A stretch of 64,000 bases of DNA from Streptosporangiaceae bacterium (GCA_036555725.1 DATBKU010000039.1:742-64741); one strand, 5' to 3'. Shown: positions 13,313 through 39,288, counted from the stretch's first letter. Notes: generated by a model not told the origin, from the sequence alone. Program-made: numbers and translations.

Positions 13313-14011
13313 TCACGCGTGGAGCACGACGGCGATCTCGGCGCCGCGCGGCGTCATCGAGCCGGGCACCGGGGTCTGCGTGCGCACCGAGCCGTTGCCG
13401 TTCGTCACGACCACGCGCAGCCCGTACTTGGCCGCCGCCGCCCGGGCCTGGGCCAGGCTGAGCCCGCGCAGGTACGGCACCGTCACCTGATCCGCGGCCG
13501 GAACGCCGTTGGAAACGTACAGGGTGACCCGCCCGCCGATCGGCAGGCCGGTTCCGGCCGCGGGGAAGCTTCGGACGACCTGTCCGGCGGGCAGCGCGGA
13601 CGGGACGCGCAGGATGTTGGCGACGATCAGCCGGGTGGCCCGCAGCCGTACGCGGGCGGTCTGCTGGTCGAGTCCCTCGGTCGGGGGCACGGCGACGTGG
13701 GGGGTGATCGCGACGCGCCGGACCGGCGCCTTCCCGGCCGGGGCCGCGGGCGCCACCGTCTCGACGGGCGCGCCGTCCTGCTGGGTGGCCGCCGCGGGCC
13801 GGGCCGGTGTCTCCGGGCCGGAGTCGCCGCTCAGGTGGCCCATCAGGGTCACCATTGCGAGCACCGCGGCGACGCCGGCGGTCATGATGCCGCCCAAAGT
13901 CAGCATCGTGCGGGTCGACATGTCCTGGTCAGGCCGCCGCTCCTCGGGATCGGCCGCCCAGGTCCTGGTCTGTTCGCGGGTGGTCTCGGGCATCGTCGCT
14001 GTCTCTTCCAC
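13313..14011 (-). CDS. membrane-anchored PASTA-domain protein
   Basis: One TM helix (MLTLGGIMTAGVAAVLAMVTLM), an Ala/Pro linker, then two PASTA-like repeats (VPYLRGLSLAQARAAAAKYGLRVVV...). The start could instead be ATG 13993. Confidence 0.65.
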   Translation of the reverse strand: MEETATMPETTREQTRTWAADPEERRPDQDMSTRTMLTLGGIMTAGVAAVLAMVTLMGHLSGDSGPETPARPAAATQQDGAPVETVAPAAPAGKAPVRRVAITPHVAVPPTEGLDQQTARVRLRATRLIVANILRVPSALPAGQVVRSFPAAGTGLPIGGRVTLYVSNGVPAADQVTVPYLRGLSLAQARAAAAKYGLRVVVTNGNGSVRTQTPVPGSMTPRGAEIAVVLHA

Positions 14012-14174: not shown

Positions 14175-14426
14175 ATGTCGGAGGCGGGCAGCCTGTCGGC
14201 GGCGGAGTTCGGGACGGCGTTCAAGGGGTTCCTGGAGCAGGCGGCGCAGGGGGTCGAGGCGCCCGAGCCGGTCTTCGCGCAGCTGATCCGGGGGCTCTTC
14301 GACGCGGAGCCGGCGCAGCTGCCGATCCTGTCGCAGCAGTTCGAGGTGTCCGACCACCCCAACGTGCAGATCGCGATGGGCGCCGTCATCGGGGCGTCCC
14401 GCGCGGAGCGCCCTGCTAGGGGATGA
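14175..14426 (+). CDS. 83-aa hypothetical protein; possibly the truncated N-terminus of an AAA+ ATPase
   Basis: ATG 14175 follows GGGAGG. High GC3. MSEAGSLSAAEFGTAFKGFLEQAA...LPILSQQFEVSDHPNVQIAMGAV. The stop overlaps the 3' end of the convergent GTPase gene by 11 nt. Confidence 0.4.
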   Translation: MSEAGSLSAAEFGTAFKGFLEQAAQGVEAPEPVFAQLIRGLFDAEPAQLPILSQQFEVSDHPNVQIAMGAVIGASRAERPARG

Positions 14427-16170
14427 GGCGGAGGATCCACCAGACGGTGAGGGCGAGGGCGGCGGCGTTGAGGAGCGACAGGCCGATGAGGATCGCCCAG
14501 CGGCCGGCCTGATAGCTCGCCGGGACCAGCTCGGCCGGGCGACCGCGGGCCGTCCAGGGGTCGCGCAGGGCGGCCGCGGGGACCTCGGGCTCGGTGGCGT
14601 GGCGGGGCGTGTGGCCGTTGAGCGAGAGCCCGCTCACCCAGCCGAGGAGTTCGGCCACGGCGGACGGGTCGGTGTCGAGGCCGGAGGCGAAGTAGCGGAC
14701 CTGCGCGGCGACTTGGTCGAGCGTACGGACCGTATTGCCCATGCCGAGGCCGGCCAGCCAGGAGCGGACGTCGGGGCCGGCGCCGTTGGCCGGGCAGAGG
14801 GAGCCGCCGATCACGGTCTGCCCGAGCAGGTCGGCCTTGGTGAGCACCACGGCAATCCGCTTCTGCCGGCCCCGATCGGGGCGGGACCGTACCTCGTTGA
14901 GGACGCGCTGCAGAGTGTCGGCCGGGTCCTCGTCGGACGTGGCGGCCGCCTTGGCGACCCGCTCGCGCTCCTCGTCGGTCAGCGCCCGCCGCACCTCCGG
15001 CAGCGCGAACGGGTCGACCACGAACAGCAGCGCCTCGCCGTGTTCGAGGTAGCGCAGCGACTCCACCTGGGTCGCCCCGGTGAAGTGCTCGCCGGCCGGG
15101 TCGTACAGGTAGAGGATCCGGCGGGCGGCGCCGGGCAGGTCGACGTCGACCATGGTGGCGAGCGGCAGCTCGGGTCCGGTCTTGGCCAGCTGCCCGCCCC
15201 GTTGGAACTCCGCGAGCGCCCCCGCGTACGCCTGCGCGTGCCGGGCCTCGACGAACGCCACCCGTCCGGTCATCGCCTGGGTGCGGCGGCTCAGCGCCCG
15301 GATGGCGAGGAACATGAACGTCGTCTTGCCCGCCGCCGGGCCGCCGACGAACGGCAGTGGCTCCACGCGGACCCGCCCGATCCGCTCCGGCAGCCGTCCC
15401 GCGCAGTGCGGGCAGTACGGGGTCAGCCGGAACCGGCCGAGTGGGATCGTCGTCGGGAGCCGGGCGCCGCACCGGCACACGTGCCGGGACGCGCCCCAGC
15501 CGTTCGGGGCGAGCCGCCGGTGCCGCGCGCCACAGGAGGGGCACTCGTAGACCGGCAGCGCGATCTTCTCGTAGCAGAACGGGTGCGGGCAGGTCTGCAG
15601 GATCCGGCCGTAGGCCATGAAGCCGCGCTCGACGGCGGCCAGCAGCAGCACACAGCCCAGCCAGGCGGCCAGGCCGGTCACGGCGACGATCCCGTACAAC
15701 ACCCCGAGTGCGACGCCGAGGACGCCGACCGGCACCGCGGCGAGCACGATCCCGCCGCAGATCGCCAGCCACAGCGGGAAGGTGAAGAAGCCGCGCGGCC
15801 CGTCGAGCAGCGACTTCGTCGTGGCGGCCAGCGCCCGCATCGCGACGGTGCGCACCCGCGGCAGGACCGTACGGACGATCATCCACCAGTCGAACCAGAC
15901 CTGGGACAGCAGGTAGTGGCGGTAGGCCGGCTCGGCACCTTCAGCCAGGGATCCGATCGGCGGGCTCATCGGCGGCGTATCGACCGGTGCGGGCCCGTCC
16001 GCCCGGGCGGTGACCAGCGCCCGCCAGGCGTGCCGGTAGTAGTACCCGACGACCGCGACGGTGGTCGCGACCAGCACGGCCGAGAAGACGACCGGGAAGA
16101 CGAAGACGAACCCAACGCCCATGACGGCCAGCCAGACCACCACGAGCAGCACCGCGACGAAGAAGGGCAT
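14416..16170 (-). CDS. polytopic membrane protein with double zinc ribbon and P-loop GTPase domain
   Basis: About 4-5 N-terminal TM helices and one C-terminal TM helix (WAILIGLSLLNAAALALTVWWIL). Cys pairs CPHPFC..CPSC and CRC..CPHC. G1 GGPAAGKTT, G3 YDPAGE, G4-like TKAD. The ATG lies 3 nt after the upstream stop. Confidence 0.8.
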   Translation of the reverse strand: MPFFVAVLLVVVWLAVMGVGFVFVFPVVFSAVLVATTVAVVGYYYRHAWRALVTARADGPAPVDTPPMSPPIGSLAEGAEPAYRHYLLSQVWFDWWMIVRTVLPRVRTVAMRALAATTKSLLDGPRGFFTFPLWLAICGGIVLAAVPVGVLGVALGVLYGIVAVTGLAAWLGCVLLLAAVERGFMAYGRILQTCPHPFCYEKIALPVYECPSCGARHRRLAPNGWGASRHVCRCGARLPTTIPLGRFRLTPYCPHCAGRLPERIGRVRVEPLPFVGGPAAGKTTFMFLAIRALSRRTQAMTGRVAFVEARHAQAYAGALAEFQRGGQLAKTGPELPLATMVDVDLPGAARRILYLYDPAGEHFTGATQVESLRYLEHGEALLFVVDPFALPEVRRALTDEERERVAKAAATSDEDPADTLQRVLNEVRSRPDRGRQKRIAVVLTKADLLGQTVIGGSLCPANGAGPDVRSWLAGLGMGNTVRTLDQVAAQVRYFASGLDTDPSAVAELLGWVSGLSLNGHTPRHATEPEVPAAALRDPWTARGRPAELVPASYQAGRWAILIGLSLLNAAALALTVWWILRLIP

Positions 16171-16173
16171 GGC

Positions 16174-18378
16174 TCACCCGCCACGCCTGCGGAACAGCTT
16201 GCGATGGTCGAGGCCGCGCCGCTCCGGCTTGGCCGCCAGGCGGTCGGTCAGCCGCGCCTTGGCCGGTTCGGCGAGCGCGGCCAGCAGTGCCGCCCGGAAC
16301 TCGGGGGTACGGGCGGCGAGCCGTTCGGCGGCCTTGGCGAAGGCGGCGTCGATCAGTGCGGGGGAGGCCGGCGCGGCGGCGACCTTGTCCAGCGACCGGG
16401 CCACGGCGGGTACCCCGGCGGCCCGGGCGAGCGCGCCGTAGCCGATGACGATGGTGGCGTCCGCGCGCGTCGTAGCCCCGCTCCCGTCCTGCCACCGGAC
16501 GGCGTCGAGCCGCTTGGCCAGCCGTACCACCTCCGGCGCCTCCAGTTCGTCGCGTACGGCGGCGAACGCGCGCGAGGGCAGCGCGGCCAGCGCCGGGTAG
16601 CGGGCGAGCGCCCCGCCCACCGAGTCGGCGCCCCACGAGTCGAGCAGCGCGTCGCACTCGGCGACCGTCGGCGCCGCGCCCGACCAGAGCGCGCGCAGGG
16701 CGGCGTCGACCTCCTCGGGGAGCGGCCCGGACCGGTCGAGCGCGATCGCGTCGCGCGTCAGCTCGACCCGCCTGGCCCGGTTGCGGCTGCCCACGGAGCT
16801 CAGCACCCGCAGCGCGACCCGCGGCGTCCCGGTGAGGTCGCGGCCGAGGGCGAGGTCGCACACCTGGTCGGTGAGCATGGTGGCCCGATTGCTCGCGGTC
16901 GCGGTCTCCAGCCCGGTCAGCGCGCCCGCGATGAGACTGTCGCGCAACCCCGGCGGTGCGGCGTGGATCGCGGCGAACAGGTCGCCGGCGGCCCGCCCGG
17001 CGCATCCGGCCGCGGCGGCGGTCACCTCGGAGCCCGGAAGCGGTACGTGACAGCGTTCGGCGAGGGCGGCGATCGCCGCGATCTCGATCAGGGTGAGTGC
17101 GGCCGCGACGGCGTCGGCGAACGCGGGCGCCAGCCCGGCTCGTGACGCGGATCCCCGCGCCGGGGCGAAGGCCGGGTCCGGGAGCCGGGGGCGCAGCTCC
17201 GGGTCGGCGAGCGCCAGCAGCACGCACCGCGTCGCGTAGCCCTCGGCGAGCTCGTCGTCGCCCGCGCCGTAGGTCAGGTCGCACAGCGCCGCCGCCAGCT
17301 CGAAGCCGAGGCGGGGGAGCGCGGGGGCCAGCTCGCGCCACACCCACGCCGGGACGTCCGCACCGTGCCGCCGCAGGAACTCGGCCGCCGCCGACTCCTC
17401 TACCGGTGTCACGCTCGGATCCCCCTGGCACAGCGCGAGCAGCGCAGCCGCCGTGTCGAACCCGGAGCCGAGCCCGGCCAGCTCGCTGAGCGCGTCGAGC
17501 CCCGCCAGGTCGTGCGCCTGCCACCGCAACGCTGCCGTACGGGCGTACCGCCCGCACCCCGGCGCGAACTCCCCGCTCCCGGGCGGCACCGGCGGGGCAT
17601 CCACGTGGGGTACCCGGTCAGGATCACGCGTGAAGAGCGGTGGGTCGATGAAGAGTGCGGGGGCGGTGTGGCCGGCAGAGGTGCCCGCGTCCCAGACGTC
17701 CGGGGTGGTGCCGACGAGGCGGTACGGCGCGTTGCCAGGGTCGTCGGTGTAGGTGATGAACGACAGCGCGGCGGCGGCCGCGGCGGGCAGCGAGTAGCAC
17801 ACCGCGGCGATCCAGCGGGCGATCACGTCGATGTCGTCGGCGGCGACGGTCACCCGGCCGTGGCCTTGCTCGATGGTCGTGACGACCGCGTCGAGCAGAT
17901 GAGCGAGCGTGCCGTACCCCGCGTCGGCGGCCAGCCAGCGCCCCAGCGTCTCCGGGTCGAACGCGTCGCCCGGGGCCAGGTCGTCGAGCGCCGGCAGGTC
18001 GCCCCGCGCGGGCACGTCGCTCCAGAAGTCGGCCCGCCACAGCTCGATCGGGCGTACGCCTTCGAGCTCGCCCGGCTCGGCCACGACCGCGTGCGCGAGG
18101 AAGTTGCCGTACCGCCCCGAGTAGTCGCGTCCCAGGTAGCGGCAGCGGACCAGCACCGCGCGCCCATCGGCCACGTCGTACGACAGCGCGACCGGGAAGC
18201 GCGCGAGCTCATCCCGGCCGGGGGCGGGCGGGGCGCCGGGCGGCGGCCGGTAGGTGAGGTACGGCGCCACGGACGCCTCGGCCCCGGGCGGCAGACCCGG
18301 CGTCGCCGCCACGAACTGGAAGCCCGCCCGGCCGGTCGGCCCGGACCGGGCGGAGGTGTACTGCAGCTGCCAGGCCAC
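16174..18378 (-). CDS. 734-aa GTPase-associated (GAP1-like) protein, N-terminal alpha/beta module plus Ala-rich helical body
   Basis: GTG start at 18378, 2 nt after the upstream TAA, with GGGAGA RBS. N-terminus VAWQLQYTSARSGPTGRAGFQFVAATPGL. The rest is predicted helical. No TM helix and no NTPase motifs. Confidence 0.65.
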   Translation of the reverse strand: MAWQLQYTSARSGPTGRAGFQFVAATPGLPPGAEASVAPYLTYRPPPGAPPAPGRDELARFPVALSYDVADGRAVLVRCRYLGRDYSGRYGNFLAHAVVAEPGELEGVRPIELWRADFWSDVPARGDLPALDDLAPGDAFDPETLGRWLAADAGYGTLAHLLDAVVTTIEQGHGRVTVAADDIDVIARWIAAVCYSLPAAAAAALSFITYTDDPGNAPYRLVGTTPDVWDAGTSAGHTAPALFIDPPLFTRDPDRVPHVDAPPVPPGSGEFAPGCGRYARTAALRWQAHDLAGLDALSELAGLGSGFDTAAALLALCQGDPSVTPVEESAAAEFLRRHGADVPAWVWRELAPALPRLGFELAAALCDLTYGAGDDELAEGYATRCVLLALADPELRPRLPDPAFAPARGSASRAGLAPAFADAVAAALTLIEIAAIAALAERCHVPLPGSEVTAAAAGCAGRAAGDLFAAIHAAPPGLRDSLIAGALTGLETATASNRATMLTDQVCDLALGRDLTGTPRVALRVLSSVGSRNRARRVELTRDAIALDRSGPLPEEVDAALRALWSGAAPTVAECDALLDSWGADSVGGALARYPALAALPSRAFAAVRDELEAPEVVRLAKRLDAVRWQDGSGATTRADATIVIGYGALARAAGVPAVARSLDKVAAAPASPALIDAAFAKAAERLAARTPEFRAALLAALAEPAKARLTDRLAAKPERRGLDHRKLFRRRGG

Positions 18379-18380
18379 CC

Positions 18381-19583
18381 TTATCTCCCGTCGAGCATGC
18401 CGAACCGGTACAGCAGCCACAGCAGCGGATCCTCGACCCGGTACGGCCGGACCCCGCCGGTACCGACCCGTCCGTCGCTGGGCACGCCGCCCAGCGCCGA
18501 GAGCCCGAAGAGCGCGTACTGGGCGTAGCGCTGGCCGAGGTACACATCGAGCTGCCCGGCCTGCCGCTCGTGCAGCAGGGCCCGTACCTGCTCGTGGACG
18601 GCCTCCCGGTCGTCGAGGTCGAGTGTGCCGGGGTTGCCGCGGGCGCGGTGCAGGGCCGACTGCCGCTCCGTCGCCGGGAGCATCGCGTCGATCTTGGTGA
18701 GCGCCACGGCCGCCGGGATGTCCAGGCGGCCCTTGTTCGGTCCGCGGCGCTGGGTGCCGCGCCGCCCGCTGACGATCTCGGTGACGCGTGCGATGACGTC
18801 GATCGGGTCGCTGTCGGGGCTGCCGCCGCCGGGCAGCTCGTGCGGGTCGACGAGGAAGATGATCGCGTCGGCCGCCTCCAGATAGCGCAGGTGCAGGTCG
18901 GCGACGTCCCGGCTGCGCAGGTCCTCGCCGGCGGTATCGAACAGCACGAGCGCGAGTGCGGCCTGCCGGGCCCGCCCGGTCCGGCCGGTGTTCGTCCGCG
19001 TCAGCAGGTAGACCAGCGGCTCGCGCGGCGCGGTCGCGGCGCTGGTGGTCGTCGGCAGCAGCCGCCGCTCGTCGTACAGCGGGCGGGCGAAGTCGCGCTT
19101 GTAGCGGTCGATGGTGCGGTCGTCGCAGGCGACCAGCGACGCGTCGAGCTCGGTGCCCACCCGGTTCATCAACTCGTGCAGCAGGACCGCGATGTACGTG
19201 CTCTTGCCCGCGTTCTTGGCGCCGACGAGGGCGACGATGCGGCCCGCGGTGTCGCAGTACGCGGCCGGCAGCGGGTTGTGGCACTCGGGACAGACCCGGC
19301 GCCCGGTCGGCCGGCCGCACTCGGGGCACTCGGCACGGGGGCGCGGCGCTCCGGACGGCGACCCGGCGCGCAGGGCCCGTGCCATGGCGTTCTTCCCGGG
19401 CCTGACCGGCGGCGGGAACACCGGTGGCAGCGAGGCGGCCGCGGTCGACCCGGTGTACCGGGCGAGCGCCTCGTCCAGCACCGGCCCGCACCCGGCGCCG
19501 CGTCCGGACCGGCCCACGCACCGGAACGCGATCCGGTCGCGCGGAACGGTCGCGAAGCAGTACGGGCAGGTCACCGTGCTCAT
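18381..19583 (-). CDS. soluble double-zinc-ribbon P-loop GTPase
   Basis: CPYC..C..C and CPEC-x10-CPEC ribbons. G1 GAKNAGKST, G3 FDTAGE, G4-like TKID. Paralogue of the GTPase domain in 14416..16170. Confidence 0.8.
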   Translation of the reverse strand: MSTVTCPYCFATVPRDRIAFRCVGRSGRGAGCGPVLDEALARYTGSTAAASLPPVFPPPVRPGKNAMARALRAGSPSGAPRPRAECPECGRPTGRRVCPECHNPLPAAYCDTAGRIVALVGAKNAGKSTYIAVLLHELMNRVGTELDASLVACDDRTIDRYKRDFARPLYDERRLLPTTTSAATAPREPLVYLLTRTNTGRTGRARQAALALVLFDTAGEDLRSRDVADLHLRYLEAADAIIFLVDPHELPGGGSPDSDPIDVIARVTEIVSGRRGTQRRGPNKGRLDIPAAVALTKIDAMLPATERQSALHRARGNPGTLDLDDREAVHEQVRALLHERQAGQLDVYLGQRYAQYALFGLSALGGVPSDGRVGTGGVRPYRVEDPLLWLLYRFGMLDGR

Positions 19584-19690
19584 GGCTCGCTCGTCCTTCT
19601 CGCTCGCGGGGCGGCCGGCCTCGTTCCTCGGCCGACCACTGCGCTTGCTCGGCGGATTCGCTCGCGGCTCATGGGGGTCTCATCGGGAAG

Positions 19691-22369
19691 TTATTGGAAC
19701 CGCAGGCGGCGGACCGGTGGGTCGGCCAGCTCCGCCTCGGCGCCGCTATCGAGGAAGCAGCGCAACCAGTATGGCCCGGTCTGTCCGGACCGGGGCTTCG
19801 GGATGGAAACCTCCAGGTCGGTGGGGCCGGTCAGGTCGAGGTCGTCCCAGGCGGCGACCGGCTCGCCGTCGCCCGGCCGCTGCGGGATGACCTTGCCGGC
19901 GCTGCGCACCAGCGTGAGCCGCCGCAGCCGGACGGACTGGTCGGGGGACAACGACAGGACGAGCCCGCGCCGCCACGGAGGCCCGGTCCGGTACAGGTCG
20001 TAGCGCACCAGGCACCGTCCCGGCACGGTCGTCGTCACCGGCGCCCCGCTCAGCCGGCTGCCGCCGGTCAGCCCGATCGAGCACACGGCGACCTCGACGG
20101 CGGCGCTCTCCGGTACGCCCAGCCGCAGGCCACCCTGCGCGTCGTACGCGGCCCGGGTCACCGTCAGCCGCCGCGGCCCGTCGCCGTTGACCTGGTAGGC
20201 CGCCTCGACCTCGGCCACCCCGGGCGGCCAGTCGAAGCCGACCATGATCACCTCGCCGCGGCGCTCGGCGACCAGGCCGGTCGGCGGCGGCAGGTTCACG
20301 TGCCGCCGGTGCGCCCCGATCGCGGCGGTGTCCCCGGCGATGGTGACGGCGAGCAGCACCCCGGTCGGGGCCTGGAACCGCAGGCCCTCGCGCGGCGGGG
20401 TGGCCGTGATCGGTACGGCGGCGAGCCGGCGCCCGGTCCGCAGCACCTCGGCCATCGGCACGATCGAGCCGTACGGCCACGGGGGCGCGGCGCCCAGCAC
20501 GACGACCTCGGCGGTGCCGCTCGACGGCGCGGCGAACGTGGCCACCACCCGGCCGGGATCGCCGGGGTCGGGCTCCACGGTGAGATCGGGGATGGGGGAG
20601 GGCGGCGCGGCGGGCGTGGCGGACCGCCATACGCCGGGCGTCGTCACCTCCGCCCCGTCGCGGTCCAGATAGACGGCGGTCAGCCGGTAGTGATACGTGC
20701 CCCCGTTCCGTACGGCGTGGTCGCGGAAGCTCTCCCGGTCGGCGGGCACCGGTACGTCGCCGCGAGTCACCAGCGTGCGGGCGGCCTCGGGCGGGCAGCG
20801 CCATCGGCCCGTCACCACGCCGTCGCCGGCGAACAGCTCGACGTCAGACGGCTCCGGCCGGACCAGCACCGGACCGGCGATCACGGGCGGGGCGGCAGCG
20901 TCGCCGCGCTGCGCCACCACGGCGTACGTGAGTGGCACGTTGACCGGCGGCCGCTCGTCGCGCACCGCGAGGTCGGCGGTGACCGCGATCTCCGTGCCGC
21001 TCCCGCCCGGCCCGGCCCGGACGACCTGGTAGTCGATATCGCCGGCCGTCGACGGCGAGGCCGGCCAGGTCAGCTGAACGGCCGTCCCGTCGACCGTGGC
21101 CTGCGCGGCGGGCACCGGACGGGGCGGCAGCCGGCGCCGGTGCTCCTCGGCGCCCGGCAGGTCGGGGACGAGCTGCAGTGCCTCGGCGAGCAGGTCCCAC
21201 GCCCGGTCGGGGTCCGGCGTGGCGGCCGCCGCGGACCGCAGCCGTACTCCCTCGGCCACCCGCTGCCGCGCCTCGGCGCCGAGGATGGTGGCGTCGCGGT
21301 CGAGGTTGCCGGGGGCGGTCTCGGCCAGCAACGCCTCGGCGACCAGCGCGGCGGCGTGCACCTCGCCGGCGTCGATCAGCTCCCGCAGCCGCCCGGCCGG
21401 GCCGCCCGCGCGCCCGCCCTCCTCCCGCTCGATGGCGAAGACGAGGCGCTGGGCGTCGTTTTCGTCGAGGCCCAGGTCGGCGGTCGCGTACCGCAGCAGG
21501 GCCCGTTCCGAGGCGCGCATGCGCTGCCGCTCCCGCAGCCGGTCCGCGATGTCGTACAGCACCAGCTCGTCGAGCTTCTCCTGCTTGACGGCGACCTTGA
21601 GCGCGACGAGCACCGTGTCGGCGTTGGTGGCGCTGCTGTCACGGGCGTGCCGCGCCCAGCGCTGCGCGACGGCCTCGACCTCGTCGCGGTCCAGCCGTAC
21701 GCCCGGGGCCTGGAAGCCGCCGAGCACCCGCATCGACCCGGTCAGCCGGGCGCCGAGCACGAAGTCGGGCACGTGCCGGTTGCCCAGAACATGCAGCGCC
21801 TCCCGTACGCGCTGAAAGGCCTGGTACGGCGGGACCGTGGGCAGCGGGTCGGGGTCGCGGATCTCGACACCGGAGGCGGCGGCCAGCTCGGCCAGCTCCG
21901 TCACGGCCAGTCCGCCCGCCCGGGCCAGGCTGTCGATATCGGCCGGGGCGAGCAGGCCCAGCGCGCCGGCCGCGTCGAGCAGCCGGGCCTTGGCCTCGAC
22001 CCGGCGCCGGGTCGTGTTCGCCTGCGCCGCGCGCAGCCTGGCCTGCAACGGCCCGAGGTCGCCGCCGGCCGCAGCGTCGAACACCGGCACGAGGGCGCGA
22101 TGCTCGGCCTCCAGCCGGTCGATCAGCTTGCGGTACTTCAGCTGGCCGCGCGCCCGCCGCCAGACCTGCCGCACCTCCTTGACCGAGCCGGCCACCTCGG
22201 CGGGCCGGAGCGGCTCGCGGAGCCGGTAGCGTACCCGCAGGTCCTCGGGCGGCTGGTCGCCCGCCGCCCGCGCGGGCTCCAGCACCTCCTGCTTGTACGC
22301 CTCGTCAACGTTCATGGGCTTGCTTCGCTTCGCCGGCTCGCGCGCGTTCGCCCGCGTGCTCGCGTGCAA
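19691..22369 (-). CDS. 892-aa protein: N-terminal helical region plus C-terminal FN3/Ig-like beta-sandwich array
   Basis: TTG start at 22369, 7 nt after AAGGTGAG and 3 nt after the Hsp70-like stop; alternative ATG at 22315. FN3-like segments (TAVQLTWPASP...YQVVRA, GGTYHYRLTAVY). No signal peptide, TM helix or HPD motif. Confidence 0.65.
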   Translation of the reverse strand: MHASTRANAREPAKRSKPMNVDEAYKQEVLEPARAAGDQPPEDLRVRYRLREPLRPAEVAGSVKEVRQVWRRARGQLKYRKLIDRLEAEHRALVPVFDAAAGGDLGPLQARLRAAQANTTRRRVEAKARLLDAAGALGLLAPADIDSLARAGGLAVTELAELAAASGVEIRDPDPLPTVPPYQAFQRVREALHVLGNRHVPDFVLGARLTGSMRVLGGFQAPGVRLDRDEVEAVAQRWARHARDSSATNADTVLVALKVAVKQEKLDELVLYDIADRLRERQRMRASERALLRYATADLGLDENDAQRLVFAIEREEGGRAGGPAGRLRELIDAGEVHAAALVAEALLAETAPGNLDRDATILGAEARQRVAEGVRLRSAAAATPDPDRAWDLLAEALQLVPDLPGAEEHRRRLPPRPVPAAQATVDGTAVQLTWPASPSTAGDIDYQVVRAGPGGSGTEIAVTADLAVRDERPPVNVPLTYAVVAQRGDAAAPPVIAGPVLVRPEPSDVELFAGDGVVTGRWRCPPEAARTLVTRGDVPVPADRESFRDHAVRNGGTYHYRLTAVYLDRDGAEVTTPGVWRSATPAAPPSPIPDLTVEPDPGDPGRVVATFAAPSSGTAEVVVLGAAPPWPYGSIVPMAEVLRTGRRLAAVPITATPPREGLRFQAPTGVLLAVTIAGDTAAIGAHRRHVNLPPPTGLVAERRGEVIMVGFDWPPGVAEVEAAYQVNGDGPRRLTVTRAAYDAQGGLRLGVPESAAVEVAVCSIGLTGGSRLSGAPVTTTVPGRCLVRYDLYRTGPPWRRGLVLSLSPDQSVRLRRLTLVRSAGKVIPQRPGDGEPVAAWDDLDLTGPTDLEVSIPKPRSGQTGPYWLRCFLDSGAEAELADPPVRRLRFQ

Positions 22370-22372
22370 CTA

Positions 22373-23959
22373 TCAGCTCACCTTGATCTTGGAGAGGGCG
22401 GCGCGGGACTTCTCGACCTCGGCCTCGGACATGCCGCCCACGTCGACCTGCAGCTCGAGGCGGTCACCGCTCTCCTTCTCGACCGCGGTGACGTGCAGCA
22501 GACCGGACGGGTCGAGCGCGAACGTGACTTCGATCGGCCAGCCGGCCTTCTTGCCCGGTGGGACCTTGACCGAGCCGGTGGCGATCTCGGTGTTGTCGGC
22601 CGGGTCGGCTGACTCGACGCTGCCGGCCTGCTCCATGACCTTGATGTCGGCGGCGTCCTGGTTGTCGTGGACCGTGTAGTAGTCCTCGGTCTTGGCCGCC
22701 GGCAGCTCGTCGTTCGCGTGGACCAGGTGACTCACCCGGTCGATGCCGCCGGCCTGCTGGTCGAGCACGATGATGCCGAACGCGCGCGACGCGACCGTCT
22801 TGATCTGGCGGCCCGCGATGTGGCGTCGCTGCTCCTCCGACAGCCCGGCCTTGCTGGCCATCTCCTCGGCCTTCTCCTCGGCGCCCTGCCGCAGCAGCCG
22901 CCGGTACGTCTCCTCGAAGGCGTACAGCGCCGCGCCCTTGGCGACCGCGAGGTCGGGGTCCTGCAGCCGCGGCGGCAGCCCGATCTCGTTCTCCAGCCGG
23001 GCCGCCACGCTCGGCATCTTCGTGGAGCCGCCGACGAGCACCAGCTCGTCATAGTCGTTGACGCCCTTGTCGGCGGCCGTCGCCAGCGTGCGGCCGGTGA
23101 GCTCGATCGTGCGGTCGAGCAGGTCCTTGGTGAGCTCCTCGAAGCGCTCCCGGGTGACCTCGATCGCGGCCACCCGTCCGTCGTGCATGACCCGTACGGT
23201 CTGCGCGGTGCGCGTGGTCAGCGCCTTCTTGGCCTCCTCGGCGTCGCGGCGGAGCTGCTGTTCGGTCTGCTTGTCGTCGAGCGGGTCGCCCGCGTCCGGG
23301 TGCTCCTTGCGGAACTGCTCGGCGAGGTACTCCACCAGCCGGGCGTCCCAGTCGGCGCCGCCCAGCTCATGGTCGCCGTCGGTGCAGATGACCTCGATGT
23401 GCCCGCCGCGCAGGGTGATGACCGTCGTGTCGAACGTGCCGCCGCCCAGGTCGTACACGAGGAGCGTGCGGTCCTGGTCTGGGTTGAGCACGCCGTACGT
23501 GATCGCCGCCGCGATCGGCTCGGAGATGATGTCGATGACGTTGAGCCCGGCGATCTGGCCCGCCTTGCGGGTGGCGTCGCGCTCGGCCGCGCCGAAGTAG
23601 GCCGGCACGGTGACGACGACGTCGCGGGCGTACTGCCCGGTCGTGGTGTGCGCGTCGGTCGCTAGCTTGAGCAGGATGAACGCGGACAGCTCCTCGGGCG
23701 TGTAGTCGAACCCGTGGATGTGCCGGGTGACGTCACGGCCCATGTCGCGCTTGATCAGGCTGACCACGTTGTCGGGCTCGAGCACGGCGGTGTCCTTCGC
23801 CGTCGCGCCCACGATGACGTTCTCCGCGGTCTCGAAGAAGACAACGGACGGCGTGGTATCGGTGCCCTCCATATTGCGCAGCACCGTCGGGCGGCCGACC
23901 TCGTCGATCGAGGCGATACACGAATACGTGGTTCCCAGGTCAATGCCGTAGACAGCCAT
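22373..23959 (-). CDS. Hsp70 family protein (DnaK-like, lid-less)
   Basis: MAVYGIDLGTTYS, DLGGGTFD and LVGGSTKMP actin-fold ATPase motifs. The SBD-beta is recognisable (WPIEVTFALDPSGLLHVTAVEKESG). The protein ends ~25 aa later, without the helical lid or EEVD tail. Confidence 0.9.
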   Translation of the reverse strand: MAVYGIDLGTTYSCIASIDEVGRPTVLRNMEGTDTTPSVVFFETAENVIVGATAKDTAVLEPDNVVSLIKRDMGRDVTRHIHGFDYTPEELSAFILLKLATDAHTTTGQYARDVVVTVPAYFGAAERDATRKAGQIAGLNVIDIISEPIAAAITYGVLNPDQDRTLLVYDLGGGTFDTTVITLRGGHIEVICTDGDHELGGADWDARLVEYLAEQFRKEHPDAGDPLDDKQTEQQLRRDAEEAKKALTTRTAQTVRVMHDGRVAAIEVTRERFEELTKDLLDRTIELTGRTLATAADKGVNDYDELVLVGGSTKMPSVAARLENEIGLPPRLQDPDLAVAKGAALYAFEETYRRLLRQGAEEKAEEMASKAGLSEEQRRHIAGRQIKTVASRAFGIIVLDQQAGGIDRVSHLVHANDELPAAKTEDYYTVHDNQDAADIKVMEQAGSVESADPADNTEIATGSVKVPPGKKAGWPIEVTFALDPSGLLHVTAVEKESGDRLELQVDVGGMSEAEVEKSRAALSKIKVS

Positions 23960-23971
23960 GGCCTCTACCAC

Positions 23972-24595
23972 CTAAATGGACTCTGCGGATGCGTTTAGGC
24001 GCGGGGGTGCGGGTGCCGCGTCGGCGATCTGGCCGATCACGACCTCGGCGCGGCGGAGTATCTGTTCCCCCTGGCCGAACCCGTCGGCCCGCACCGCTAC
24101 GACGGCGCCGTCGAGCACCAGGTCCGTGACCGGCGCGGTGTCGACCGGCCGGTGCCGTACCGGGTCGAAGCGCTCGCCGGGCTCGACCGCCAGGCGCTCG
24201 GCGCCGGTACGGGCCAGCGCGTCGGCGATCTCGTCGGCGATGGCCGCCAGCAACGGCGCGGCGTGCACCGCGTCTGGCCGATCCGGCGCGGCCCACCGCC
24301 CCGACTCACGGCGCACCATGTCGTGCAGCCGGTACAGCGCGGTGCGTACCGGATCGAGCATGGCCTGCAGCTCACCGCGGCGCAGCATCTGGTTGTCGTC
24401 GTGCAGCCGATCGATGACCGCCTCGCGGTGCGCGGCGCGTTCGTGTTCACGCTCCGTAAGCGCGCTCAGGCGTTCCAAAGTGGCCTGAACCGCGGCCAGC
24501 CCATCACTCAGGGCGATTTCGGCATCGGAGGTGGGCCGGGTGAACGCAGCGGGAACGGCGCCGTTGTCGCTGGGGGAAGTATGTGCACTCGACAC
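23972..24595 (-). CDS. GrpE-like nucleotide exchange factor
   Basis: GTG start. Long coiled-coil-like N-terminal half, then GERFDPVRHRPVDTAP...VVAVRADGFGQGEQILRRAEVVIG, which matches the GrpE C-terminal FDPxxH ... R.A.V.V pattern. The stop lies 12 nt before the Hsp70-like ATG. Confidence 0.7.
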   Translation of the reverse strand: MSSAHTSPSDNGAVPAAFTRPTSDAEIALSDGLAAVQATLERLSALTEREHERAAHREAVIDRLHDDNQMLRRGELQAMLDPVRTALYRLHDMVRRESGRWAAPDRPDAVHAAPLLAAIADEIADALARTGAERLAVEPGERFDPVRHRPVDTAPVTDLVLDGAVVAVRADGFGQGEQILRRAEVVIGQIADAAPAPPRLNASAESI

Positions 24596-24675
24596 GTGGA
24601 CAAACCCTAACGGTCGGTAACCCTTAACGATAGCCCAGCATGCCGAAACAGCTGAGCATTCTCTGTGTCGATACT

Positions 24676-24718
24676 GCCGTGAATCACGCCGGAAACGTAG
24701 GCCCTGCAGCCGTGAATC
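24676..24718. promoter_or_regulatory. direct repeat GCCGTGAATC x2 (33-bp spacing) upstream of the GrpE-like operon
   Basis: Copies at 24676-24685 and 24709-24718, 80-125 nt upstream of the GTG at 24595. The function is inferred only from position. Confidence 0.25.
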
Positions 24719-25021
24719 CCGCGATCAGGAGTAGATTATCCGAGGTCAGCGGCGGTCACACTGTTTGCCGCGTATCCGGGTCTGTTGCCCTTCGGGAAGC
24801 CCGGTTCGTGCCCACCGGCCCCGGCGTGTTCGGCGGCATCGACACGCCCGGCGTCCGGCCGGTGCCGCCGCGGCGCCGACGGCACGCCCTACGGCTTGGC
24901 CCGTCAGCGGGCCCGAGGTAGTGGTGCGCGTCGCCCGCCGATCGCGACGACCCAACCCCTTCACATCGCCATCCGGATCCCCTCGTTAGGCGTGATGACT
25001 CGGCTATTTTCCGACGACAAA

Positions 25022-25050
25022 GGCCTGACAAACGATTGCATTGTCAGGCC
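25022..25050. promoter_or_regulatory. 29-bp palindrome/hairpin GGCCTGACAA-ACGATTGCA-TTGTCAGGCC containing a LacI-type operator core
   Basis: Perfect 10-bp arms. The loop and inner arms contain CAAACGATTGCATTG, identical to 7662-7676. Confidence 0.4.
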
Positions 25051-25107
25051 GCCGAAATGCCGTCAGGTGACATGTCATGGAACCATCGTCGATGCGGATG
25101 CCGATTG

Positions 25108-25132
25108 TGGACACATTGGCCGATTGTGTCCA
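25108..25132. promoter_or_regulatory. inverted repeat TGGACACA-N9-TGTGTCCA
   Basis: Perfect 8-bp arms about 190 nt upstream of the first kinase ATG. A GCCGATTGTG direct repeat overlaps both arms. Confidence 0.25.
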
Positions 25133-25323
25133 AATAATGGGGATGCCGGGATACGCACCGGTAGGTATGAGTTGGTCAAAAGACTCAGTCTGCCCGATTT
25201 ACATGCGCTAGCTTCGGCGTAGTCCCCACGACGACGCACGAGAGTGCGAGGGGGGTGTCGTGCCAAAGAGGGCCTCGACACTGCGTAGAGAGGTGTTGTC
25301 CTGGCTTTAGGAAGTTGATCAAG

Positions 25324-26565
25324 ATGGGTTCGAAGCCGATCGGCCCGTACGAGGCGCTGCGCAAACTGGGCTCGGGGGGAATGGGGACCGTCTATCTCGC
25401 CCTGGACGCAGAAGGTCATACGGTGGCGGTCAAGGTGATCCACCCGCACGTGGCCGAAGACATGAACGGCCTGAAGCGGCTGGCCAGAGAAGTCGAGACC
25501 ATGAAACGGGTGGCGAGTCCGTATGTGGCCGAGTTGCTCGACGCCGATTTGACCGGCAGCCATCCCTACATCGTCACCCGTTATGTGCAGGGCCGGTCAT
25601 TGCAAGACGTGGTCACGCGGCGCGGCACGCTGACCGGTGACCAGCTATGGACACTGGGTAAGGGACTCGCCGCCGCGTTGGACGCGATCCACGGAGCCGA
25701 CGTTATCCACCGGGACCTCACGCCCGGCAATGTCATGCTCTCCGATGGCGTTCCCATCGTCATTGATTTCGGCATCGCCCGGGCATTTGACGCGACGCGT
25801 ATCACCCAGACCATGATTGGCACCCCCGGCTATGTCGCCCCCGAAGTGATTCGGGGGGAACGCGCGGGGCCGCCGGCCGACGTCTTTTCTTGGGCGGCCA
25901 CGATGATCTACGCCGCCACCGGCAAAAGGTGCTTCGACGGCAAAAATCTCATGGAGGTTTTTCAACGCACGCTCGAAGCGGAGCCGGATCTCACCGGCGT
26001 CCCGCGTGATCTGCTGCCGGTGCTGTGGAAATCCTTGCGCAAGGATCCATCCGAGCGGCCGTCGCTGGCCGGGGTGATCGGCACCGTCTCCACTCTCGCA
26101 CCCGACACGACGTGGCCGGCCGTGCCGTCGCGGCGCACGTCGGCGAGCCGGCTCCCAGGGCTGTGGGCGGCCGCCGGGGAGGCGCGCGAACGGGGCGACA
26201 TCAATCGTGCGGCCGAGCTCTACGCCGAGGTTTGGAAGGTCGCCATCAGCAACGAAGATCCTGGCAGCGAGATGTTCGCGCTCTACCAGCTCGGGTGGGC
26301 GGCGGAGTCCCGCCTCGACTATGGCGCGGCCCACGGCTTCTACGAGCAAGCGCTGCAGGCCGCGAAATCCGTGGACGCCGCGTCCATCCAGGCGCTGGCG
26401 CTGCGTGAGCTGGAGCAGCTCTCCCGCATGAGGGGCGATACGGACGCCGCGCGCGCCTACGCGGAGGAAGCGCGCCACGTGCTGGACAAGAGGTACAAGG
26501 CCGGTTATCCCCGGCTCCCGGACGGGGACAGCGAGCCCTTCGTGCGGCCGTGGGTGCGCGGGTAG
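25324..26565 (+). CDS. Hanks-type Ser/Thr protein kinase with C-terminal TPR-like module (soluble)
   Basis: GSGGMGTVY G-loop, VAVKV, HRDLTPGN catalytic loop, DFG and APE. The C-terminal ~120 aa contain TPR-like helices. No TM segment. Confidence 0.9.
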   Translation: MGSKPIGPYEALRKLGSGGMGTVYLALDAEGHTVAVKVIHPHVAEDMNGLKRLAREVETMKRVASPYVAELLDADLTGSHPYIVTRYVQGRSLQDVVTRRGTLTGDQLWTLGKGLAAALDAIHGADVIHRDLTPGNVMLSDGVPIVIDFGIARAFDATRITQTMIGTPGYVAPEVIRGERAGPPADVFSWAATMIYAATGKRCFDGKNLMEVFQRTLEAEPDLTGVPRDLLPVLWKSLRKDPSERPSLAGVIGTVSTLAPDTTWPAVPSRRTSASRLPGLWAAAGEARERGDINRAAELYAEVWKVAISNEDPGSEMFALYQLGWAAESRLDYGAAHGFYEQALQAAKSVDAASIQALALRELEQLSRMRGDTDAARAYAEEARHVLDKRYKAGYPRLPDGDSEPFVRPWVRG

Positions 26566-26607: not shown

Positions 26608-26676
26608 TAAACTAGGCGTTACTTGATCGGTGCTGTCGGAATGGGGCGTCCCCCGCGGCCCTGGGAGTGGATCACG

Positions 26677-27918
26677 ATGCATCCGGATCGGGTCGGCCCG
26701 TACGAGGTGCTGCGCAGACTGGGCAGCGGCGGAATGGGTTCGGTCTACCTGGCTCTGGACGAAGACGGCCACACCGTCGCGGTCAAGGTGATCCATCCGC
26801 ATGTCGCCGAGGACGTGAACGGCCTGCGCCGGCTGGCCCGCGAGGTGGCGGCCATGAAGCGGGTGGCGAGCCCGTTCGTCGCCGAGCTGCTGGACGCCGA
26901 CCTCGACGCCGACCCCGCTTACCTCGTCACCCGCTACGTGCAGGGCCTGTCGCTGCAGGAGCTCGTCGAGCGGCGCGGCCCGCTGACCGGTGAGGCGCTG
27001 TCGAGCCTGGGCCAGGGCCTGGTGACGGCGCTGGACGCCGTCCACGGCGTCGACGTCGTGCATCGGGACCTCACCCCGCGCAACGTCATGATGGCCGACG
27101 GCGTCCCGACGGTGATCGACTTCGGCATCGCGCAGGCCTTCGACGCGACCCGCATCACCCAGACCCTGATCGGCACGCCCGGGTTCGTGGCGCCGGAGGT
27201 GATCCAGGGCGAGCGGGCCGGCCCGGAGGCGGACATCTTCTCCTGGGCGGCCACGATGGTCTTCGCCGCGACCGGCCACAAGTGCTTCGGCGGCCGGAAC
27301 TTCCTGGAGACCCTGCACCGGACGCTGGCCAAGGACCCCGACCTGTCCGGCGTGCCGCACGAGCTGACCACCATCCTCGCCCGCTCGCTGCGCAAGGACC
27401 CCGCCCGGCGTCCGCCGATCAACGCGCTGATCGCGGGCATCTTCATCAAGTCCCCGGGCGAGGCGCCGCCGGTTCCGTCGCAGCGGCAGAGCCCCGCGAG
27501 CCGGGTCGCCGCCCTGTGGTCCGCGGCGGGGCAGGCTCGGGAGAAGGGCGAGCACGGCCGGGCCGAGGCGCTGTACGGCGAGGTACGGCAGCTCGCGGTC
27601 AAGTCAAAAGACCTGGCCGGCGAGATGTTCGCCACCTACCAGCTGGCGTCCGCCGCCGAGCACCGCCGAGACTACGGCGCCGCACAGGACTTCTACGGCC
27701 GGGTACAGGACATCGCCAGGAGACTGCGCTCGCCGACCATCGAGGCGCAGGCGCTCCAGGGCCTCGAACGCCTGGCCCGCATGACCGACAACACGAACCT
27801 GGCCTGGGCCTACGCCGAGCAGGCCCGGCGGGTGGTGGCCGACAAACACACCCAGGGTTATCCGAAGCAATTCGAAGAGCCCGACGGCGAGCCCCTGTTG
27901 CGGCCCTGGACGCCCTGA
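26677..27918 (+). CDS. Hanks-type Ser/Thr protein kinase with C-terminal TPR-like module (paralogue of 25324..26565)
   Basis: Same architecture as the first kinase and collinear with it over the full length. HRDLTPRN catalytic loop. Confidence 0.9.
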   Translation: MHPDRVGPYEVLRRLGSGGMGSVYLALDEDGHTVAVKVIHPHVAEDVNGLRRLAREVAAMKRVASPFVAELLDADLDADPAYLVTRYVQGLSLQELVERRGPLTGEALSSLGQGLVTALDAVHGVDVVHRDLTPRNVMMADGVPTVIDFGIAQAFDATRITQTLIGTPGFVAPEVIQGERAGPEADIFSWAATMVFAATGHKCFGGRNFLETLHRTLAKDPDLSGVPHELTTILARSLRKDPARRPPINALIAGIFIKSPGEAPPVPSQRQSPASRVAALWSAAGQAREKGEHGRAEALYGEVRQLAVKSKDLAGEMFATYQLASAAEHRRDYGAAQDFYGRVQDIARRLRSPTIEAQALQGLERLARMTDNTNLAWAYAEQARRVVADKHTQGYPKQFEEPDGEPLLRPWTP

Positions 27919-30514: not shown

Positions 30515-31573
30515 ATGCCCGAGGAGGTCTCCGTGCCCGCTATCGCCACCACACCCGCCGGTTCGATCGAGTCGGTCGGCTCGCCGTCGCTGTGGGCGCT
30601 GACGATCGGCGTCGTCGCCGCGCTGATCGCCCTCGACTTCGTCATCACCAGGCGCCCGCACGAGGTGTCGATGCGCGAGGCGATCGCCTGGTCCGCCTTC
30701 TACATCGCGCTGCCGCTGGCTTTCGGCGGCTTCCTGTGGGCGAGGTTCGGCGCACGGCCGGCCACGGAGTTCATCACCGGCTATGTGGTCGAAAAATCGC
30801 TGTCGGTGGACAACCTCTTCGTGTTCATGCTGCTGCTGGCGGCCTTCGCGGTGCCCGCGATCCTGGCGCAGCGCGTGCTGCTGTACGGCATCGTCGGCGC
30901 CCTCGCGCTGCGCGGCGTCTTCATCGCGCTCGGCGCGGCGGCGCTGAACACGCTCGACTGGGCGTTCCTGCTGTTCGGCGCCATCCTGCTGATCACCGCC
31001 GTCAAGATCATGCGGGACACCGTCACCGGCCACAACCAGGAGGTCGACGTCTCGGCGATGCGCTCCGTACGGCTGTTGCGGCGGCTGCTGCCGGTCACCG
31101 ACGGGTACCGCGGCCCGCGACTGCTGGTCCGTGACGGCGCCCGCCGGGCATTGACCCCGTTCGCACTGGTCGTGGTCGCGGTGCTGGCCACCGACGTGGT
31201 GTTCGCCGTCGACTCGGTCCCGGCCGTGTACGGGGTGACCGGCGACCCGTTCCTGGTGTTCGCCACCAACGCCTTCGCGCTGCTCGGCCTGCGCGCGCTC
31301 TACTTCGTGCTGCAGGGCGCGCTGGCCCGGCTCGTCCACCTCGGCTACGGCCTGGCCGCCATCCTGGCCTTCATCGGCATCAAGCTGGTGCTGCACTGGG
31401 CGCACATGAGCTGGCACAGCGTCCCGGAGGTCCCGACCGCGGTCTCGCTCGGCGTCATCGCGGCGATCCTCGCCACGGTCACCGTGACCAGCCTGCGCGC
31501 CACCCGCACCACGCAACACCGCGCCGCCCACCCGGACGACAAGGACCCCGAGCTGGCGGCGGCGGACTCCTAG
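30515..31573 (+). CDS. TerC family integral membrane protein
   Basis: GYVVEKSLSVDNLFVF and AVDSVPAVYGVT TerC motifs. The start may be GTG 30533, 5 nt after GAGGAGG. Confidence 0.9.
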   Translation: MPEEVSVPAIATTPAGSIESVGSPSLWALTIGVVAALIALDFVITRRPHEVSMREAIAWSAFYIALPLAFGGFLWARFGARPATEFITGYVVEKSLSVDNLFVFMLLLAAFAVPAILAQRVLLYGIVGALALRGVFIALGAAALNTLDWAFLLFGAILLITAVKIMRDTVTGHNQEVDVSAMRSVRLLRRLLPVTDGYRGPRLLVRDGARRALTPFALVVVAVLATDVVFAVDSVPAVYGVTGDPFLVFATNAFALLGLRALYFVLQGALARLVHLGYGLAAILAFIGIKLVLHWAHMSWHSVPEVPTAVSLGVIAAILATVTVTSLRATRTTQHRAAHPDDKDPELAAADS

Positions 31574-33073: not shown

Positions 33074-33077
33074 AACT

Positions 33078-35984: not shown

Positions 35985-36029
35985 GGGCGCGGGCCTCCCG
36001 CGTGAGGGGTGGGTTGGCGGTCGCGAGGC

Positions 36030-36065
36030 GTCCCGCCCCCGGAGGAGTCGAGGTGGGGGCGGGAC
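36030..36065 (-). terminator. 11-bp perfect-stem hairpin between the GH3 and GH35 genes
   Basis: GTCCCGCCCCC (36030-36040) pairs with GGGGGCGGGAC (36055-36065), with a 14-nt loop. There is no U-tract. Confidence 0.4.
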
Positions 36066-36081
36066 ACCGGTCCGCGGTTGG

Positions 36082-39126: not shown

Positions 39127-39159
39127 GAAGGTCCTCCCTGATGCGTAGCGGACAGGGAA

Positions 39160-39175
39160 GTCGAAGCGCTTCGAC
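39160..39175. promoter_or_regulatory. perfect 16-bp palindrome GTCGAAGCGCTTCGAC (LacI-family operator), copy 1
   Basis: Lies 34-49 nt upstream of the GH3 ATG. Confidence 0.6.
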
Positions 39176-39288
39176 AACCTGGCCGCGAAAATGAACTTCA
39201 CATACCCCGGGGAAGGTCGTCAAGGCCCAATTACGTGGGCGCTTAGAAGACTTGTGCTTTAGTGAGGCAAGGTCTAGATTCACGCCCA

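Follow-up and report, generated by a model that had tools for sequence, protein, structure and literature searches.

A 64,000-nucleotide (nt) stretch of a Streptosporangiaceae metagenome-assembled genome (MAG; GCA_036555725.1, DATBKU010000039.1:742-64741; hereafter the window) carries a minus-strand operon of six genes. These encode, in order, a GrpE-like protein, an Hsp70-like protein, a large protein in which a helical domain is followed by fibronectin type III (FN3)-like repeats, a soluble zinc-ribbon GTPase, a GAP1 protein and a membrane-anchored zinc-ribbon GTPase (Table 1). All six open reading frames (ORFs) appear in the ORF listing for the window, and a third-position GC content of 0.95, in a region of 70-77% GC, marks them as coding frames. 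The ATG of the Hsp70 gene is preceded by GGAGG. Five of the six coordinate sets in the original prediction, which was made from the sequence alone, hold, but the FN3 protein had been drawn as an 892-aa ORF (19691..22369) that opens with TTG. A deposited protein of identical sequence, P0001 (874 aa; "MAG TPA: Streptosporangiaceae bacterium", tag VH912_06320), starts at Met19, as do all homologues, and we therefore place the gene at 19691-22315. With this start the spacers are 12, 57, 107, 2 and 3 nt; the second had been given as 3 nt, and the other four stand. At the protein level, the window, the Streptosporangiaceae MAG and three JGI metagenome contigs are 100% identical.

Table 1. Genes and conserved non-coding blocks of the locus, in window coordinates (NBD, nucleotide-binding domain; SBD, substrate-binding domain; TM, transmembrane segment; AF2, AlphaFold2).
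Feature	Coordinates	Strand	Basis or remark
GrpE-like nucleotide exchange factor, 207 aa	23972..24595	(-)	First operon gene, GTG start
Lidless Hsp70, 528 aa: NBD, helical insert, beta SBD	22373..23959	(-)	Pfam HSP70
Helical domain (aa 1-395) and five FN3-like beta-sandwich domains, 874 aa	19691..22315	(-)	AF2, Foldseek
Soluble DO-GTPase2 with two N-terminal zinc ribbons, 400 aa	18381..19583	(-)	Pfam and motifs
GAP1, N2 type, 734 aa: GAP1-N2, GAP1-M, long Ala-rich helical C-terminal region	16174..18378	(-)	Pfam
Membrane DO-GTPase2, 584 aa: four N-terminal TM, two zinc ribbons, GTPase, C-terminal TM	14416..16170	(-)	
Candidate facultative seventh gene: TM and 2xPASTA, 232 aa (annotated 226 aa)	13313..14011	(-)	Pfam PASTA
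Conserved non-coding blocks 5' of the grpE-like gene; candidate promoter, operator or leader	24593..24697	(-)	20-region alignment

Family hidden Markov models (HMMs) matched five of the six proteins above threshold, and the sixth was recognised as an FN3 array by an AF2 model and Foldseek. Both GTPases match Pfam DO-GTPase2 (PF19993), the membrane protein with 73.1 bits over aa 271-509 and the soluble one with 39.5 bits, and both have two N-terminal zinc ribbons, a P-loop, DxxGE and TKxD. The ribbons of the soluble GTPase are C6/C9..C22/C32 and C86/C89..C98/C101, and its motifs read GAKNAGKS (P-loop), DTAGE (Walker B) and TKID (G4); the membrane GTPase has GGPAAGKT, DPAGE and TKAD. Motif inspection, combined with the DO-GTPase2 matches, confirms the G1, G3 and G4 motifs that had been predicted in the two proteins. 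Hydrophobic blocks in the membrane GTPase lie at residues 1-45 and 127-185, read as four TM helices, and at 558-584, a C-terminal TM, a count that comes from hydropathy rather than from a dedicated predictor. All of its orthologues have the C-terminal TM tail and none has an extracellular domain.

The 734-aa protein matches GAP1-N2 (PF20013) with 142.8 bits and GAP1-M (PF20014) with 76.1 bits, against a cut-off of 24 in each case, and its residues W3, Q4, L5, Y7, T8 and S9 are invariant in 15 homologues. The GTPase pair and this WQLxYTS protein had been likened to GAP1-type families, which the assignment to DO-GTPase2, GAP1-N2 and GAP1-M bears out. No match to GAP1-C (PF20052) was found in the window protein at E<=0.01 with Pfam; distant relatives carry precomputed PF20052 assignments. 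Close relatives have a homologous C-terminal region, but one that changes fast, with 39-44% identity to the window protein. Searches of solved structures with the sequences of the FN3 protein, GAP1 and the soluble GTPase returned nothing relevant.

In the AF2 model of the FN3 protein (predicted local distance difference test, pLDDT, 89.5), residues 1-395 are helical and are followed by five beta-sandwich domains. Foldseek aligned the model with fibronectin FN3 7-10 (E=3e-13), and its matches included the ectodomains of LepR and gp130 (E 1e-13 to 1e-10), in agreement with the beta-sandwich array that had been proposed for this protein. There is neither a TM segment nor a signal peptide, and so the FN3 array is cytoplasmic. 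The protein had no match in our local copy of Pfam, which excludes the FN3-domain family models PF25832, PF25833 and PF25835 (Fn3_SaeA_2nd, 3rd and 5th); precomputed tables place PF25835 on the window protein and PF25832/PF25833 on relatives. The family name may point to a characterised homologue, and a literature search for a protein SaeA did not find its source. DnaJ and TPR were sought specifically: Pfam gave no match to either, even at E<=10, and a comparison with a hand-typed J-domain profile by hhalign had a probability of 0.25%. Foldseek with a dedicated model of residues 1-400 (pLDDT 87) returned no J-domain and nothing significant, its TPR-protein matches being non-significant (E 3-9).

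The Hsp70-like protein matches Pfam PF00012 with 360 bits, and the GrpE-like protein, whose 'VSS...' N-terminus is common to its orthologues, matches PF01025 with 34.4 bits over model positions 94-164 only, the C-terminal part. The actin fold and the GrpE C-terminal pattern seen in the original prediction are thereby supported. Alignment of the Hsp70 to Mycobacterium tuberculosis DnaK covers only the NBD and SBD-beta, and the orthologues end shortly past the beta SBD, without a lid. Residues D8, K70, E171, D194, T199 and D201 (Escherichia coli numbering) are kept in 65/65 orthologues, which are presumably active ATPases. In the same alignment R167 is replaced by D in 65/65 orthologues, N170 by S and T173 by I or V, three positions that we take to be J-domain docking residues in E. 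coli DnaK; this role reportedly goes back to DnaK R167H suppressor genetics and to a crystal structure of DnaK with a J-domain. Four far more distant Hsp70s of the system have H, Q, Q and G at the R167 position. Judged by alignment, none of the system Hsp70s examined (65 plus four) retains R167, the canonical contact with the J-domain, and the protein appears to have abandoned J-proteins. The six proteins include no detectable DnaJ/HPD protein, nuclease or protease by Pfam, motifs, hhalign or Foldseek, as had been predicted, and the sole HPD tripeptide among them lies inside the Hsp70.

We considered a J-like domain with a charge swap, in which an invariant basic motif at the N-terminus of the FN3 protein (RQxWRRxRGQLKYRKL) would pair with the R167-to-D replacement. 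The idea was dropped given the hhalign probability of 0.25%, the lack of a J-domain in the Foldseek search, and the H, Q or G at the R167 position in distant cassettes.

Could the pair simply be an ordinary heat-shock dnaK-grpE operon that lies by chance beside GTPase genes? The significant HSP70 and GrpE Pfam matches would fit, as would the features shared with the housekeeping DnaK-GrpE-DnaJ machinery, namely an actin-fold ATPase with intact catalytic residues, a beta SBD and a GrpE-type exchange factor. However, scores against the NCBIfam equivalogs fall far below the cut-offs (352-355 bits against 648-822 for DnaK, 17-23 bits against 167-266 for GrpE), and the genes run grpE-hsp70, not dnaK-grpE-dnaJ-hspR, with dnaJ and hspR absent. 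No HAIR or CIRCE operator, the sites expected of HspR and HrcA control, was found in the window. Unlike housekeeping DnaK, the Hsp70 has no lid and no J-protein, the docking residues R167, N170 and T173 are replaced, and the VLLLD linker is altered; moreover, the four other genes accompany the pair without exception. We regard the heat-shock explanation as extremely improbable, and the earlier claim that the pair is not housekeeping, together with the low HSP70 and GrpE scores and DO-GTPase2 and GAP1 matches that it led one to look for, agrees with these results. A canonical dnaK is expected elsewhere in this MAG, given that 98.9% of bacterial genomes have dnaK (PMC11019930). Streptomyces dnaK2 and dnaK3 (PMC13284173) were considered as relatives of the Hsp70 gene and set aside as unrelated; they are monocistronic, full-lid paralogues.

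The gene set corresponds to a type of GTPase-centric system that Kaur, Burroughs, Iyer and Aravind defined computationally (eLife 2020, PMC7159879). In their account, DO-GTPases are often paired and have one or two N-terminal zinc ribbons and a Walker-B glutamate, and some carry peptidoglycan-binding domains; GAP1 has N, M and C domains and is encoded downstream of a GTPase. Systems of the GAP1-N2 type have an FNIII-repeat protein, whereas GASH is tied to GAP1-N1 systems, and the "GASH-type" label given earlier to the present locus is thus misplaced. The second theme of GAP1-N2 systems, with HSP70 and GrpE, makes up ~14% of GAP1-N2 neighbourhoods, chiefly in actinobacteria and firmicutes, and its FNIII protein is typically, though not obligatorily, fused to DnaJ or TPR; a third theme has a Ser/Thr kinase-TPR (PMC7159879). 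The window shares with the GAP1-N2 system two paralogous TRAFAC GTPases with a Walker-B glutamate and two N-terminal zinc ribbons, 4+1 TM helices on the second GTPase, GAP1 N2 and M domains encoded downstream of a GTPase, an FNIII-repeat protein, HSP70 and GrpE genes and a filamentous actinobacterial host. We conclude with high confidence that the locus is a chromosomal GAP1-N2 double-GTPase (DO-GTPase2) system of the HSP70-GrpE theme in a Streptosporangiaceae MAG. The combination had been put forward as undescribed; it is no new class of system, but a member of a predicted type published in 2020.

The locus departs from the published description in several respects. Its FN3 protein has no detectable J-domain and a TPR is unproven, its GAP1 is unmatched by the Pfam GAP1-C model, and within Thermomonosporaceae it is fixed in a conserved core region, whereas GAP1-N2 neighbourhoods are called mobile (PMC7159879). 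MoxR-vWA 'ternary' systems and GAP1-N1/GASH systems resemble the window system in their logic: the NTPase switch and a third component stay constant while other modules vary. They differ in that the former use another NTPase (AAA+ MoxR) and the latter another GAP1-N type, with GASH in place of FNIII, and their calcineurin-like, TIR, PNPase and SLATT effectors are absent here. PADLOC-DB v2 holds no model for the system and gave only marginal matches (DpdE, 0.007; LeoA, 0.01; HEC-01B, 7e-4).

Kaur et al. proposed that such systems act in biological conflict, in association with multicellular bacteria (PMC7159879). Applied to this locus, the FN3 array or GAP1-C would sense a phage or plasmid, the GTPases would set a threshold, and a multimer of Hsp70 and the FN3 protein would then block the invader or kill the cell, sparing the mycelium. 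The published proposal and the multicellular association speak for such an immune role, which we consider possible but short of an even chance. Against it, no effector domain is present, PADLOC systems are unmatched and the 64-kb window contains no defence or mobile-element genes. A plasmid search gave no match for the system, and a PHROGs search no phage family except for Hsp70.

How the cassette is inherited bears on the same question. Related loci were collected by a GAP1-alignment scan with one genome per species, the best 80 of 217 relatives were kept, and gene presence was determined by tblastn with the window proteins. The order GrpE-Hsp70-FN3-GTPase-GAP1-GTPase on one strand was found in every locus where the contig is long enough; all six genes were detected in 72/80 loci, and the GrpE-like gene lies upstream of the Hsp70 gene in 72/80. 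The genera with the cassette include Actinomadura, Spirillospora, Thermomonospora, Sphaerisporangium, Streptosporangium, Planobispora and Acrocarpospora. Synteny in every informative locus, distant ones included, agrees with the earlier view of the six genes as one conserved unit, and the co-occurrence with the Hsp70/GrpE pair that had been anticipated was likewise found. The patchy, accessory distribution anticipated with it was not, since the flanks in Thermomonosporaceae are conserved. Clustering of flanking ORFs gave ~50 Thermomonosporaceae loci with the same neighbours: a divergent ACT-domain protein, acyl-CoA synthetase, PfkB kinase and aldolase upstream, and an MFS transporter, nitroreductase, LLM oxidoreductase and TetR regulator, then a phosphotriesterase, an HtrA-like protease and a molybdopterin oxidoreductase downstream. 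Sphaerisporangium has another neighbourhood, itself conserved within the genus.

Median pairwise identities among 47 Thermomonosporaceae-type loci were 89% for Hsp70, 79% for the soluble GTPase, 76% for the membrane GTPase, 70% for the FN3 protein, 65% for GrpE and 57% for GAP1, the fastest-evolving of the set, with 64-89% for the flanking genes. Apart from the enzymes, conservation is highest in GAP1-N2 (71%) and in residues 1-120 of the FN3 protein (69%), as one would predict for interaction surfaces; it is lowest in GAP1-C (39-44%). The FN3 repeats, at 50-64% identity per domain, are not hypervariable. With the same metabolic genes kept around the cassette, and with rates of change in it close to those of the adjoining genes, these comparisons indicate vertical inheritance under purifying selection in Thermomonosporaceae rather than a fast-turnover island. 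An immune function can claim one observation here, the evolution of GAP1 faster than all flanking genes (57% against 64-89%). It has to contend with a single conserved locus of 1:1 orthologues among metabolic genes in ~50 Thermomonosporaceae species, with Hsp70 and GTPases that evolve at the rates of their neighbours, and with the lack of hypervariable FN3 repeats.

The same data are the ground for another explanation, that in Streptosporangiales the system is a domesticated cellular machine with a housekeeping-like role in the hyphal envelope or in development, for example a membrane-associated scaffold assembled in response to cell-wall status. Vertical inheritance, the conserved core neighbourhood and a strict gene order across at least seven genera argue for it, as does conservation like that under purifying selection (Hsp70, 89%), and the carriers fetched are all known as filamentous sporoactinomycetes. 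Non-coding blocks upstream of the grpE-like gene are also kept across genera. An alignment of 20 upstream regions from several genera revealed three of them, CGTTTCC-N3-GTGTTACCC-N5-TGTC at window positions 24667-24697 and the blocks CTATC and CC.TTA.GGT.ACT.CAC, the last beside the GTG start, at 24593-24636. They may form a promoter, operator or leader, and they match no sigma-70 consensus, HAIR, CIRCE or Rfam family; Rfam was negative on window 13-26 kb, and a scan for sigma-70 promoters and terminators gave chance-level matches only.

A further argument for an envelope role comes from a PASTA-protein gene on the same strand, 404 nt downstream of the membrane GTPase gene. The protein crosses the membrane once, with a TM at residues 35-61, and has two extracytoplasmic PASTA domains (Pfam, 66 bits, two stretches), PASTA being peptidoglycan-binding. 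A TM-PASTA gene occupies the same position in 18/80 related loci, mostly at 70-560 nt and once at ~1.6 kb. Because it lies downstream in these loci and in the window, it hints at a link to peptidoglycan, consistent with the published remark that some DO-GTPases carry peptidoglycan-binding domains (PMC7159879), and the TM-PASTA protein may be a facultative seventh component that makes this link. However, the PASTA link is seen in only about a quarter of loci, no phenotype is known, and immunity is compatible with long-term vertical retention. Protease-armed mobile relatives and defence-island contexts elsewhere, described below, also point to an origin in conflict. We therefore hold a domesticated envelope or developmental role only tentatively, as a somewhat doubtful proposition, and make no firm choice between it and immunity.

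A profile of the FN3 protein retrieved 665 cluster representatives at E<=1e-30, most of them collinear and 880-900 aa long. Additional domains were sought with Pfam in two samples, of 8 and 9 proteins, out of 142 representatives. Some relatives have an N-terminal caspase (Peptidase_C14/CHAT) joined directly to the start of the helical domain, with the His-Cys dyad intact; other additions are a trypsin domain, a C-terminal DO-GTPase2, and an alternative N-terminus with a double zinc ribbon. In the metagenomic caspase-like variants (loci L084, L086, L090 and L091/L092) the HIACHG and LDCC[FY] motifs are intact. All five protease-fused variants (these four and L093) lack Hsp70/GrpE in the locus, whereas their loci keep the core order FN3-GTPase-GAP1-GTPase. 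Protease-armed cassettes thus share with the window the four-gene core and its order, with 26-41% identity to the window proteins, and differ in the caspase or trypsin before the helical domain and in the absence of Hsp70/GrpE. Among the sampled variants without a protease, from distant metagenomic loci, a lidless Hsp70 lies directly upstream in 6/6, with GrpE visible in four, and the window gene order holds even though the Hsp70 is only 41-48% identical. Because the protease-fused variants keep the four-gene core without GrpE-Hsp70, the last four genes, FN3-GTPase-GAP1-GTPase, are the portable core, to which GrpE-Hsp70 is added as an exchangeable module. The original prediction had divided the operon by its spacing into GrpE-Hsp70-FN3 and GTPase-GAP1-GTPase, a division that gene content elsewhere does not follow.

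The surroundings of these relatives are mobile, as published for GAP1-N2 systems and unlike those in Thermomonosporaceae: integrases, insertion sequences (IS), toxin-antitoxin modules and GmrSD occur next to them. The flanks of L084 hold two phage-type integrases, those of L091 an rve integrase and FtsK/SpoIIIE. At L093 (9379-19318), a Trypco1 protein, a 1360-aa trypsin-fused helical and FN3 protein, a GTPase, GAP1-N2 and a 646-aa protein are set between a RepSA/integrase module and IS110 transposases, a set that looks like an integrative element. Integrase or transposase flanks were thus found at L084, L091 and L093, and the contigs of L086, L090 and L092 are too short for flanks. Hsp70-type cassettes have similar company. 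In L094 (4919-5683) the system Hsp70 is a 254-aa C-terminal fragment cut by an IS, beside transposase genes and a PIN/PhdYeFM toxin-antitoxin pair, and in L096 (148-1191) an intact Hsp70-type cassette adjoins a gene for GmrSD_C (type IV restriction-like) and ISL3 transposases. The wider family therefore shows hallmarks of conflict systems, though the Thermomonosporaceae copy looks fixed. Both sets of contexts, the caspase/trypsin-fused relatives and Trypco1 beside phage integrases, IS110, rve and RepSA/FtsK, and the distant Hsp70-type cassettes beside GmrSD_C, ISL3 transposases and PIN/PhdYeFM, one with its Hsp70 cut by an IS, count in favour of an immune role.

Our best explanation overall, which we consider reasonably probable, combines the GAP1-N2 identity with a membrane GTPase switch in which the chaperone pair replaces a protease module. 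We hypothesize a mechanism in five steps. The soluble and membrane-anchored zinc-ribbon GTPases would pair as a heterodimeric GTP switch on the cytoplasmic side of the membrane, and GAP1 would dock on this switch through its conserved N2 and M domains. The cytoplasmic protein with the helical domain and five FN3 domains could serve as a scaffold or sensor under control of the switch. The lidless, J-independent Hsp70, recycled by its own GrpE, would act on the N-terminal helical module of the FN3 protein and thereby license, drive or reset a higher-order assembly, so that the chaperone pair would fill the functional slot of the fused caspase or trypsin in mobile relatives. The output would be membrane-proximal and, in some lineages, coupled to the peptidoglycan-binding PASTA protein. 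The original prediction had likewise suggested that the chaperone pair may remodel the scaffold and that the membrane GTPase may be the output. Domain identities, motifs, synteny, conservation and the alternation of Hsp70 with a protease are observed; which parts touch, in what sequence they act, what triggers them and what biological role they serve is inferred, and the mechanism taken as a whole is more likely wrong in some part than right throughout.

Several points weigh against this explanation. The literature search found no experiments on any member of the system, and no toxic effector is recognisable in the six proteins. Foldseek gave no significant structural match for the N-terminal helical domain (best E=1.2), which leaves conservation and adjacency as the grounds for Hsp70 docking on it. 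The gaps of 57 and 107 nt leave room for internal promoters. Finally, the alternation of Hsp70 with a protease stands on 11 sampled contexts, some on short contigs. A bolder synthesis makes the Hsp70/GrpE pair a J-independent actuator of an immune-like GTPase switch, interchangeable with caspase or trypsin, in a device that has been domesticated and linked to the envelope in Streptosporangiales; we think this unlikely.

If this bolder synthesis is true, the executing role of a protease in a bacterial 'apoptosome-like' system would have passed to a chaperone. The operon joins two universal machines, the Hsp70 cycle and a GTPase switch, and is confined to filamentous bacteria. To the published type the locus adds the observations of fixed inheritance, a J-independent lidless Hsp70 and the alternation of chaperone and protease. 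The label of an NTP-dependent conflict system can thus be turned into testable questions, namely what the Hsp70 acts on, and whether the system serves immunity or envelope and developmental control. The locus and its ~80 orthologues are a clean comparative data set, the chromosomally fixed version in cultivable Thermomonospora and Actinomadura is suited to genetics, and nature supplies swap variants with a caspase in place of the chaperone pair.

Divergent from the operon lie two tandem paralogous Ser/Thr kinase genes with C-terminal TPR-like regions, at 25255-26565 (+) and 26623-27918 (+). We considered them as members of the system, in the manner of the published third theme, and do not count them in it, because they are limited to the window and its closest MAG relatives. 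The intergenic region between the operon and the first kinase (24596-25254) is unusually long, at ~660 nt compared with 70-190 nt in relatives, and has a lower GC content (~65%). The divergent neighbour in ~50 other loci, the ACT-domain protein (230 aa), is missing from the window; a weak tblastn trace at 24658-24774 corresponds to the upstream part of the ACT-protein ORF of a relative (locus L004). Apart from the operon and its surroundings, the window encodes glycoside hydrolases, sugar transport proteins and regulators. The content at 30515-48663 and 57962-60823 is that of an ordinary chromosome: TerC, an alpha-L-fucosidase, GH35, GH3 with CBM6, GH31 and GH1 proteins, the binding protein of a sugar ABC system and a large regulator of the LuxR family that has an AAA_16 ATPase domain.

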